DNA of 64,000 nucleotides from a virus. Made by a program: the position numbers and the translations under genes. Below are positions 1,731 to 2,426 of this stretch, piece by piece. How positions within the stretch are numbered: the first letter of the stretch is position 1; each line of letters opens with the position of its first letter. The notes beneath the pieces were generated by a model, which saw only the letters and a list, made by a program, of their open reading frames with translations, was not told the origin of the DNA and did not search any database. The DNA lies in the IMG/VR virus record IMGVR_UViG_3300042557_000330, positions 1 through 64,000 of that record, one strand, 5' to 3'.

Positions 1731-2426
1731 TTATTTTTTAGGGGTTGTTCTTCTAACTGGAGGTTTTCTTTTAACTGGAGTCCTTCTTACAGGTTTCTTA
1801 ACAGCTTCCTTCTTATCTTTAATGAATTTCATTATAACATTAGCAAGTAGAATAAATGCTAAAGCTAATACAGCAATCATAAAGTTTGAGAACGTCTTAA
1901 GTAGATCTTGTATCTCATGTACAAGTGTTGATCCTTCTGAGCTCTGTAAATCTATAAGAGCATTTGTATCATCCATTATAGGATTGATAAGATCATCTAT
2001 CTCACCAGACTTAATTAGAGAATCTGTTTCAGCAAGGTTTTTATTGTCCTCAACATTCTCTATTAGTTCATCAATTACATCATCTGCTTCTTTAATCTCA
2101 TCATTAACTTTGTCTACAATCTTTTGTTCTTCAGGACTCATCTCACATTTCAAGTAAGCTCCCCATACAGAATCACGAGTAACTTTCCACTGTTTGATAT
2201 CTTTCAAGTTATCTTTCACCTTCTCAGGATTAAATGTTCCTGTAAAGTTTGACTGAATAGGTGTACCATAGTAGTCAAATGATTTAGACAGCCATGGTTG
2301 AGGCTCTAGATTGTTTTTAATTAATGTTTCAGAAGTCTCATGTATTTTTCCATCAACCCATTTACCATAAATAGCTACACTAATCATGATGAGAGTTAAT
2401 AAGATCATTGGAGTGTTCTTGTTCAT
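1731..2426 (-). CDS. 2-TM protein with periplasmic four-helix-bundle (chemoreceptor 4HB/Tar-like) sensor domain and basic cytoplasmic tail
   Basis: TM1 - NNLEPQPWL - VWGAYLKCEMSPEEQKIV - LIDLQ - TM2 fits the MCP four-helix-bundle pattern; no HAMP or signalling domain. Confidence 0.65.
   Translation of the reverse strand: MNKNTPMILLTLIMISVAIYGKWVDGKIHETSETLIKNNLEPQPWLSKSFDYYGTPIQSNFTGTFNPEKVKDNLKDIKQWKVTRDSVWGAYLKCEMSPEEQKIVDKVNDEIKEADDVIDELIENVEDNKNLAETDSLIKSGEIDDLINPIMDDTNALIDLQSSEGSTLVHEIQDLLKTFSNFMIAVLALAFILLANVIMKFIKDKKEAVKKPVRRTPVKRKPPVRRTTPKK

Follow-up and report, generated by a model that had tools for sequence, protein, structure and literature searches.

The timing of lysis determines the burst size and fitness of a phage, and to our knowledge signal-controlled lysis is well understood only for lysis inhibition of the T4 type. 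In phage lambda, stoichiometric co-expression and basic cytoplasmic tails tune the lysis timing of S; in T4, the rI and t genes are not adjacent. On the side of bacterial receptors, the first transmembrane (TM) helix TM1 and helices alpha1 and alpha4 of the four-helix bundle (4HB) build the dimer interface of Tar-type receptors, and changes in the bundle of Tar and NarQ shift alpha4-TM2 relative to alpha1-TM1. T4 RI inhibits the holin T from the periplasmic side, even if RI is anchored in the membrane (PMC11413866). GlnX of Corynebacterium glutamicum is a 4HB membrane protein without an output domain that signals via protein contacts (PMC9769921), an example of 4HB domains that can also act through periplasmic binding proteins or other protein contacts. 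Here we describe a phage gene that encodes a 231-amino-acid (aa) chemoreceptor-type 4HB sensor module without output and lies in a lysis operon directly behind a holin-like gene. It was found in the IMG/VR virus record IMGVR_UViG_3300042557_000330 (73.9 kb, estimated completeness 64%), of which the first 64 kb were analysed; this whole stretch is called the window below.

The 231-aa protein was composed of TM1, a periplasmic 4HB, TM2, and a 32-residue tail rich in K, R, and P, which were encoded as follows.

1731-2426, minus strand: open reading frame (ORF) of the 231-aa output-less 4HB_MCP_1 (PF12729) membrane protein, with an ATG start and its stop codon at 1731-1733
2358-2408, minus strand: TM1, aa 7-23, of the uncleaved signal-anchor type (hydropathy; helix 4-40 in the AlphaFold2 (AF2) model)
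1899-2357, minus strand: periplasmic four-helix bundle, aa 24-176 (AF2 secondary structure, fold matches, and signature residues)
1830-1898, minus strand: TM2, aa 177-199, with the family-invariant motif FSNFM and continuous with alpha4 (AF2 and conservation)
1734-1829, minus strand: cytoplasmic K/R/P-rich tail, aa 200-231, predicted to be disordered (predicted local distance difference test (pLDDT) score below 50 from aa 214)

In the AF2 model, the helices spanned residues 4-40/42-61, 67-92, 98-126, and 131-210, and those of the bundle were assigned as alpha1 (24-61), alpha2 (67-92), alpha3 (98-126), and alpha4 (131-176). TM1 showed a conservation of 0.73 with conserved T11, A18, and G21, and it aligned with TM1 of cellular methyl-accepting chemotaxis proteins (MCPs) and sensor kinases. 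The tail contained 15 K/R, 2 D/E, and 6 P residues with a net charge of +13, and the tails were basic in every member of the family (mean +14 over approximately 35 aa). The domain between the TM helices was acidic (mean net charge in the family, -10). By the positive-inside rule, the acidic middle domain and the basic tail indicated that both termini are cytoplasmic (N-in/C-in) and the bundle periplasmic. The basic tail occupied the place of the HAMP and output domains of the cellular relatives, and neither HAMP, MCPsignal, HisKA/HATPase, nor any other output domain was detected in the window protein or in 41 relatives. The cytoplasmic transmitter of a complete receptor was therefore lacking: 32 residues followed TM2, and the 88 homologous clusters that a word-indexed search recovered (35-97% identity, all metagenomic) were all 195-272 aa long. 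These results agreed with an earlier note on this DNA, made from the sequence alone, which had claimed a TM-periplasmic domain-TM topology, a short basic tail, and the absence of a signalling domain.

Membership of the 4HB sensor family was established by profile and sequence searches. The protein matched Pfam 4HB_MCP_1 (PF12729) with an E-value of 1.8e-9 and 37.9 bits (gathering cut-off, 27 bits), aa 8-173 covering positions 13-178 of the 181-position profile; TarH scored 21.3 bits, under its cut-off. PF12729 was also matched by 37 of 41 diverse relatives, with a best E-value of 7.9e-12. A phmmer search against 1.8 billion representatives gave 42 matches, and those outside the phage family were full-length chemoreceptors and PAS-histidine kinases, whose N-terminal TM1-4HB_MCP_1-TM2 modules aligned to aa 8-207 with E-values from 5e-8 to 7e-4. 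The closest cellular sensors, many of them PAS-histidine kinases, were 23-30% identical to the 231-aa protein. When 19 cellular N-terminal modules were placed on the phage-family profile with hmmalign, the signature of the cellular subfamily was found to be kept in the phage proteins: DR..P and D.Y in alpha1, W..Y..T.LT.EE at the alpha2/alpha3 turn, and DP......L.DLQ in alpha4. The pattern W..Y......EE, which the earlier note had picked out, was thus a real family signature whose spacing had been misread by one residue, the actual arrangement being W88-x2-Y91-x7-E99-E100. A profile search of PDB sequences gave no relevant match. Chance was excluded as an explanation by the E-values and by the fact that more than 100 viral loci have conserved the gene under purifying selection. 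A conserved pocket specific to the phage proteins was also considered and rejected, since most of the invariant residues belonged to the generic signature of the cellular family.

The AF2 model, built from a 25-sequence alignment, had a pLDDT of 83.7 and showed four long helices between two TM helices. Every one of the best Foldseek matches was a 4HB sensor domain; their target-normalised TM-scores ranged from 0.78 to 0.83, and all Foldseek E-values exceeded 0.03. VIA-align gave a Z-score of 15.0 with the sensor domain of MCP2201 (2.3 Å, 129 of 131 residues), 14.1 over 211 residues with full-length Tsr, both TM helices included, and approximately 12 with Tar, PcaY, and NarQ (sensor plus TM). 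The comparison with 4HB_MCP/Tar domains therefore bore out the predicted fold of the 4HB sensor type (Z 12-15). Taken together, the 231-aa protein is a chemoreceptor-type 4HB sensor module without output, and its TM1-bundle-TM2 part, the input half of a receptor, most likely originated by capture from a chemoreceptor or a sensor kinase of cellular origin.

The sensor gene was tightly coupled to the gene of a 127-aa holin-like protein upstream of it. Its ATG overlapped the stop codon of the holin-like gene as TAATG at 2424-2428, in accordance with the translational coupling proposed earlier. The AF2 model of the 127-aa protein showed two long membrane helices, a short third helix, amphipathic helices, and a basic tail similar to that of the sensor. 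Viewed from the sensor side, a gene of at least 95 aa ended no more than 12 nt from the sensor start in 97 of 102 loci, with an overlap of -4 or -1 nt in 65 of them. From the holin side, two independent searches, which counted only loci whose contig had room for a sensor gene, found the sensor gene directly 3' of the holin gene in 74/74 and 100/100 loci; the sets of 102, 74, and 100 loci overlapped, with many contigs in common. None of the 100 holin-motif loci was without the bundle gene. These results indicated that the pairing of holin and sensor is essentially obligate across the family. Pairwise identities of the sensor correlated with those of the holin-like protein at 0.87, and the values obtained against the small TM protein of the cassette were 0.56 and 0.53. 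The sensor evolved faster than the holin-like protein, the mean pairwise identities being 47% and 62%, respectively.

Comparison of the window with the related locus L008 revealed a whole-gene allele replacement, in which the DNA was 53-73% identical across exactly the sensor gene (2400-1762), whereas identity stood at 90-100% in the holin-like, 74-aa, and endolysin genes on either side. Frequent swapping of sensor alleles was rejected: among the other loci, none of 80 pairs with holins at least 90% identical had sensors below 70%, so swapping is rare. The heptapeptide TPVKRKP occurred in the tails of both the holin-like protein and the sensor (2429-2473 and 1734-1829 of the window, respectively) and was written in different codons, so the shared motif is not a recent DNA duplication. 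Concerted evolution of the two tails was examined as well; k-mer sharing within a locus was marginally greater than that across loci (p approximately 0.02, uncorrected for relatedness), and this result was not relied on.

Two scans of IMG/VR found 22 and at least 114 loci of the family. The ratio of non-synonymous to synonymous substitution rates (dN/dS), calculated from 90 distinct coding sequences, was approximately 0.19 and lay between 0.13 and 0.23 in every region, indicating that the sensor gene is under purifying selection throughout. Conservation was highest in TM1, alpha1, and TM2 and lowest in alpha2 and alpha3, which alpha4 as well as alpha1 exceeded. In the ESM Atlas the protein fell in viral clusters, and the nearest named cluster was 98% viral and 95% of it carried PF12729. 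No match was obtained among 50,697 records of cultured phages by tblastn with the sensor, a distant family member, and the 127-aa protein, or in cultured-phage records by megablast with the first 8 kb. A scan of 185,579 prokaryote species genomes (one each) with patterns from the family alignment confirmed no relative or prophage copy, and PHROGs contained no family for the sensor. Matches of 65-116 aa that might have represented a bare hairpin without the bundle started at internal methionines of the full-length sequence and looked like fragments at contig ends. In two wetland RNA libraries, short contigs matched parts of the sensor and holin genes with 95-99% identity, for which DNA carry-over is a possible source. 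In the freshwater run X7, the end of the sensor gene that encodes the tail (window 1712-1961) occurred in two variants, one with a 3-nt deletion at 1802 and 14 other differences, which shows micro-diversity of the tail within one sample.

The sensor gene was the third in a lysis operon of eight co-directional, closely packed genes on the minus strand (205-3133). Its surroundings contained endolysin, holin-like, and spanin-like genes, and it stood between two holin-like genes, so that both its location inside a lysis cassette and its position there were as the earlier note had described them. The other features of the operon were as follows.

3208-3215, minus strand: putative TAtaTTTG box (Bacteroidota-type -7 element), approximately 75 nt 5' of the first ATG of the operon (read from the sequence)
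2816-3133, minus strand: gene at the head of the operon, encoding an XhlA-like protein of 105 aa with a coiled coil and a C-terminal TM helix (phrog_937, E-value 1.8e-7; start taken at MENAF...)
2426-2809, minus strand: 127-aa holin-like protein (phrog_6384 'holin', E-value 2e-6)
1502-1726, minus strand: 74-aa two-TM protein resembling class II holins, 4 nt 3' of the sensor gene (ORF and hydropathy)
1041-1502, minus strand: Peptidase_M15_3 endolysin (PF08291, E-value 3e-22; phrog_894, E-value 6e-40)
722-1057, minus strand: 111-aa i-spanin-like protein with an N-terminal TM helix and a coiled coil (ORF and sequence features; conserved in related loci)
346-813, minus strand: 155-aa o-spanin-like secreted coiled-coil protein ending in ...YNLF, without a lipobox (ORF; 73-81% identity in related loci)
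205-342, minus strand: 45-aa very basic protein without a TM helix, last in the cassette (ORF; 62-80% identity in related loci)

Homologues of the XhlA-like protein, likewise of 105 aa, were 92-93% identical in L008, L009, and related loci, and phrog_6384 was also matched by 31 of 41 relatives of the 127-aa protein. The 74-aa protein had no match in Pfam or PHROG. The start of the endolysin gene overlapped the stop of the 74-aa gene as TAATG, like the junction between the sensor and holin-like genes, and the genes of the 155-aa secreted and the 111-aa i-spanin-like proteins overlapped by 92 nt. In L007, the 45-aa basic protein was found at a different position.

The composition of the cassette varied among the relatives. 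The family of the small 74-aa two-TM protein was represented in 94 of 101 loci and lay on the upstream side of the holin-sensor pair in 47 and on the downstream side in 47. The endolysin module was swapped between Peptidase_M15_3 (the window, L008, and others) and GH19 with a peptidoglycan-binding domain (L009, L011, and L023; the GH19 gene of L009 is at L009:6931-7545), and L027 had a longer GH19 form. The slot upstream of the pair was occupied by an XhlA-like protein in some loci and by Phage_holin_4_1 in others, such as the 147-aa three-TM protein of L013:5177-5620 (Phage_holin_4_1, E-value 8e-10), which had equivalents in L014-L022. In distant relatives, a secreted protein of 144-151 aa with the look of an outer-membrane protein, ending in ...INKDF (a beta-barrel-type C-terminal Phe), was encoded beside a TM-plus-coiled-coil protein. 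The spanin-like equipment of this phage group included no lipoprotein in the window (346-1057), L024:5711-6408, L025:5731-6573, or L071:2453-2887, and Pfam contained no family for any of the spanin-like proteins of the window or the distant relatives. Elsewhere in the window, the region 10157-51395 consisted mostly of five huge minus-strand ORFs of 2286, 1628, 4580, 1246, and 1766 aa, with ORFs of 929 and 820 aa among them.

DNA of the window, with a G+C content of approximately 32%, recurred in lake-water and freshwater metagenomes from many studies; the phage is an uncultured one of lake water. Loci related through the endolysin were found on contigs of metagenome-assembled genomes labelled Ignavibacteria, Sphingobacteriales, Chitinophagaceae, Flavobacterium, and others, none of which had the holin-sensor pair. 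The low G+C content, the TAnnTTTG box, and these labels gave a weak hint of a Bacteroidota-type host.

With regard to function, TM2 ends in a basic tail and not in a HAMP domain, so the protein would have no output other than contact, either with the membrane or with other proteins in it. Because of this contact-only output and the obligate 127-aa partner, we favour the reading that the sensor is an antiholin-like timing regulator, which would link the state of the periplasm to holin triggering, and we give this reading about an even chance. Like an antiholin, the sensor is encoded together with a holin-like protein in the lysis cassette, as the TAATG overlap and the adjacency counts showed. 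In the proposed mechanism, the short, strongly basic, holin-style tail would have replaced the cytoplasmic transmitter, and the sensor would be made from the late lysis operon through translational coupling to the holin-like protein. It would reside in the inner membrane, where it would probably dimerise as the cellular relatives do, and might contact the holin-like protein through the conserved TM1/TM2 helices with a contribution of the basic tail. A ligand, a binding protein, or a condition of the envelope could determine the state of the bundle; alpha4 and TM2, being one continuous helix, would transmit this state as they do in Tar or NarQ and thereby make the holin or holins trigger earlier or later. 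The earlier note had read the protein as a ligand-responsive regulator of holin timing, which is plausible. A more specific version, in which freshwater phages would have wired the captured sensing half of a chemoreceptor to a holin so that a periplasmic cue (a nutrient, a cell-wall fragment, or a signal of host density or of phage origin) sets the time of bursting via an alpha4-TM2 piston, is in our judgement rather unlikely.

Several observations weigh against a timing regulator. The conserved residues are largely the generic 4HB_MCP_1 signature and indicate no particular ligand or binding site. The sensor showed no similarity to a known antiholin or holin family in Pfam or PHROGs, and no lysis family of either collection matched it at E-values up to 1; antiholins are not one family, so membership was not decided by this result. 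Co-inheritance as tight as that observed is also expected from mere adjacency. Between the window and L008, moreover, the holins were 94% identical and the sensors 57%, whereas the reverse was found between L008 and L009 (72% and 96%, respectively), from which it follows that any contact between the two proteins cannot rest on variable surfaces. In cassettes with an additional Phage_holin_4_1 protein recognised by Pfam, there were up to four membrane proteins, several of which might be the true hole-former. Finally, the obligate pairing and gene coupling, and with them the same genomic data, are also accounted for by the main rival explanation, in which the 231-aa protein is a structural co-holin that forms the lesion jointly with the 127-aa protein and the bundle is a periplasmic scaffold for dimerisation or oligomerisation and not a sensor. 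Two TM helices in an N-in/C-in arrangement with a basic C-terminus are the layout of a class II holin, the sensor and the holin-like protein both carry holin-style K/R/P tails (with TPVKRKP in both in the window), and 231 aa is near the size of T4 T, a holin with a large periplasmic domain (PMC11413866). However, the signature residues of true sensors have been retained under purifying selection, neither Pfam nor PHROGs gave the sensor a holin-family match, and two or three other holin-like proteins are already present in the cassette. We consider a co-holin a serious alternative, but an unlikely one.

The place of the gene in the lysis operon might also give nothing but late expression, if the protein were a decoy or exclusion factor that silences a host 4HB_MCP_1 kinase or chemoreceptor by forming heterodimers (for example, in a late envelope-stress response) or blocks superinfecting phages at the inner membrane. 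The retention and conservation of TM1, alpha1, and alpha4, the dimer-interface helices of Tar-type receptors, would suit such a role, as would the many PAS-histidine kinases among the nearest cellular relatives. An identity of only 23-30% to these relatives and the lack of a close cellular copy among the 185,579 species genomes make it improbable, and late expression alone leaves the invariable coupling to the holin-like gene unexplained. Even more doubtful, and in our view very improbable, is an envelope-spanning accessory, whose bundle would dock outer-membrane or spanin-like components and act in the outer-membrane step of lysis. This idea draws on the distant relatives, in which the sensor gene is ATGA-coupled to the gene of the 144-151-aa outer-membrane-like protein behind it. 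In the window, however, the next genes encode the 74-aa TM protein and the endolysin, and in both arrangements a separate TM-plus-coiled-coil protein pairs with the secreted protein. Unlike an i-spanin, the sensor has a second TM helix that brings its chain back to the cytoplasm, where its C-terminus lies.

In more than 100 contigs of uncultured phages, a textbook bacterial sensor module has thus lost its output and become locked to a holin-like gene. Our search of full-text literature on sensor-domain and phage-lysis topics yielded no account of a chemoreceptor-type domain in a phage lysis cassette. If the sensor does regulate a holin, it would represent a general, modular way for phages to probe the environment or the periplasm of the host ahead of lysis. 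In that case it would also provide a minimal model of 4HB receptors that signal to a membrane partner with neither HAMP nor kinase, and a compact part for ligand-triggered lysis switches. If gating by a ligand were true, it would constitute a signalling path from receptor to holin without a kinase or second messenger.

Among known systems, the modules of Tar, Tsr, MCP2201, PcaY, and NarQ/NarX share with the phage protein the architecture of TM1, an up-down-up-down bundle, and TM2, the family PF12729, the signature residues, and the fold (Z 12-15, root mean square deviation 2.1-2.8 Å). The phage protein differs from chemoreceptors and kinases in that it has a 32-aa basic tail instead of a HAMP, kinase, MCP-signal, or cyclase output, and in that its gene is viral, belongs to a lysis operon, and is coupled to a holin-like gene. 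GlnX is likewise a 4HB-type periplasmic bundle protein without enzymatic output, whose contiguous helices carry a signal from the periplasm to a partner protein bound to it; however, it is a cellular protein with four TM helices and two bundles, receives its signal from GlnH, and controls the kinase PknG, not lysis. The RI/T system of T4 resembles the present one in having a phage-encoded, membrane-anchored, periplasm-facing helical protein that could control holin triggering, and a large periplasmic domain in lysis control is common to both. RI has no sequence or family relationship to the phage sensor: it is a single-pass or secreted protein of approximately 97 aa that binds the periplasmic domain of T (PMC11413866), whereas the sensor is a two-pass receptor module, and the 127-aa holin-like partner, in contrast to T, has almost no periplasmic part. 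In the adjacent gene pair P1 LydA/LydB and in dual-start lambda S105/S107, as in the window, the regulator is encoded with or right behind the holin, but these antiholins have neither a sensor domain nor a periplasmic bundle and no homology to the phage sensor. What may be new here is that holin-associated lysis control, itself of a known kind, is combined with a captured receptor module.

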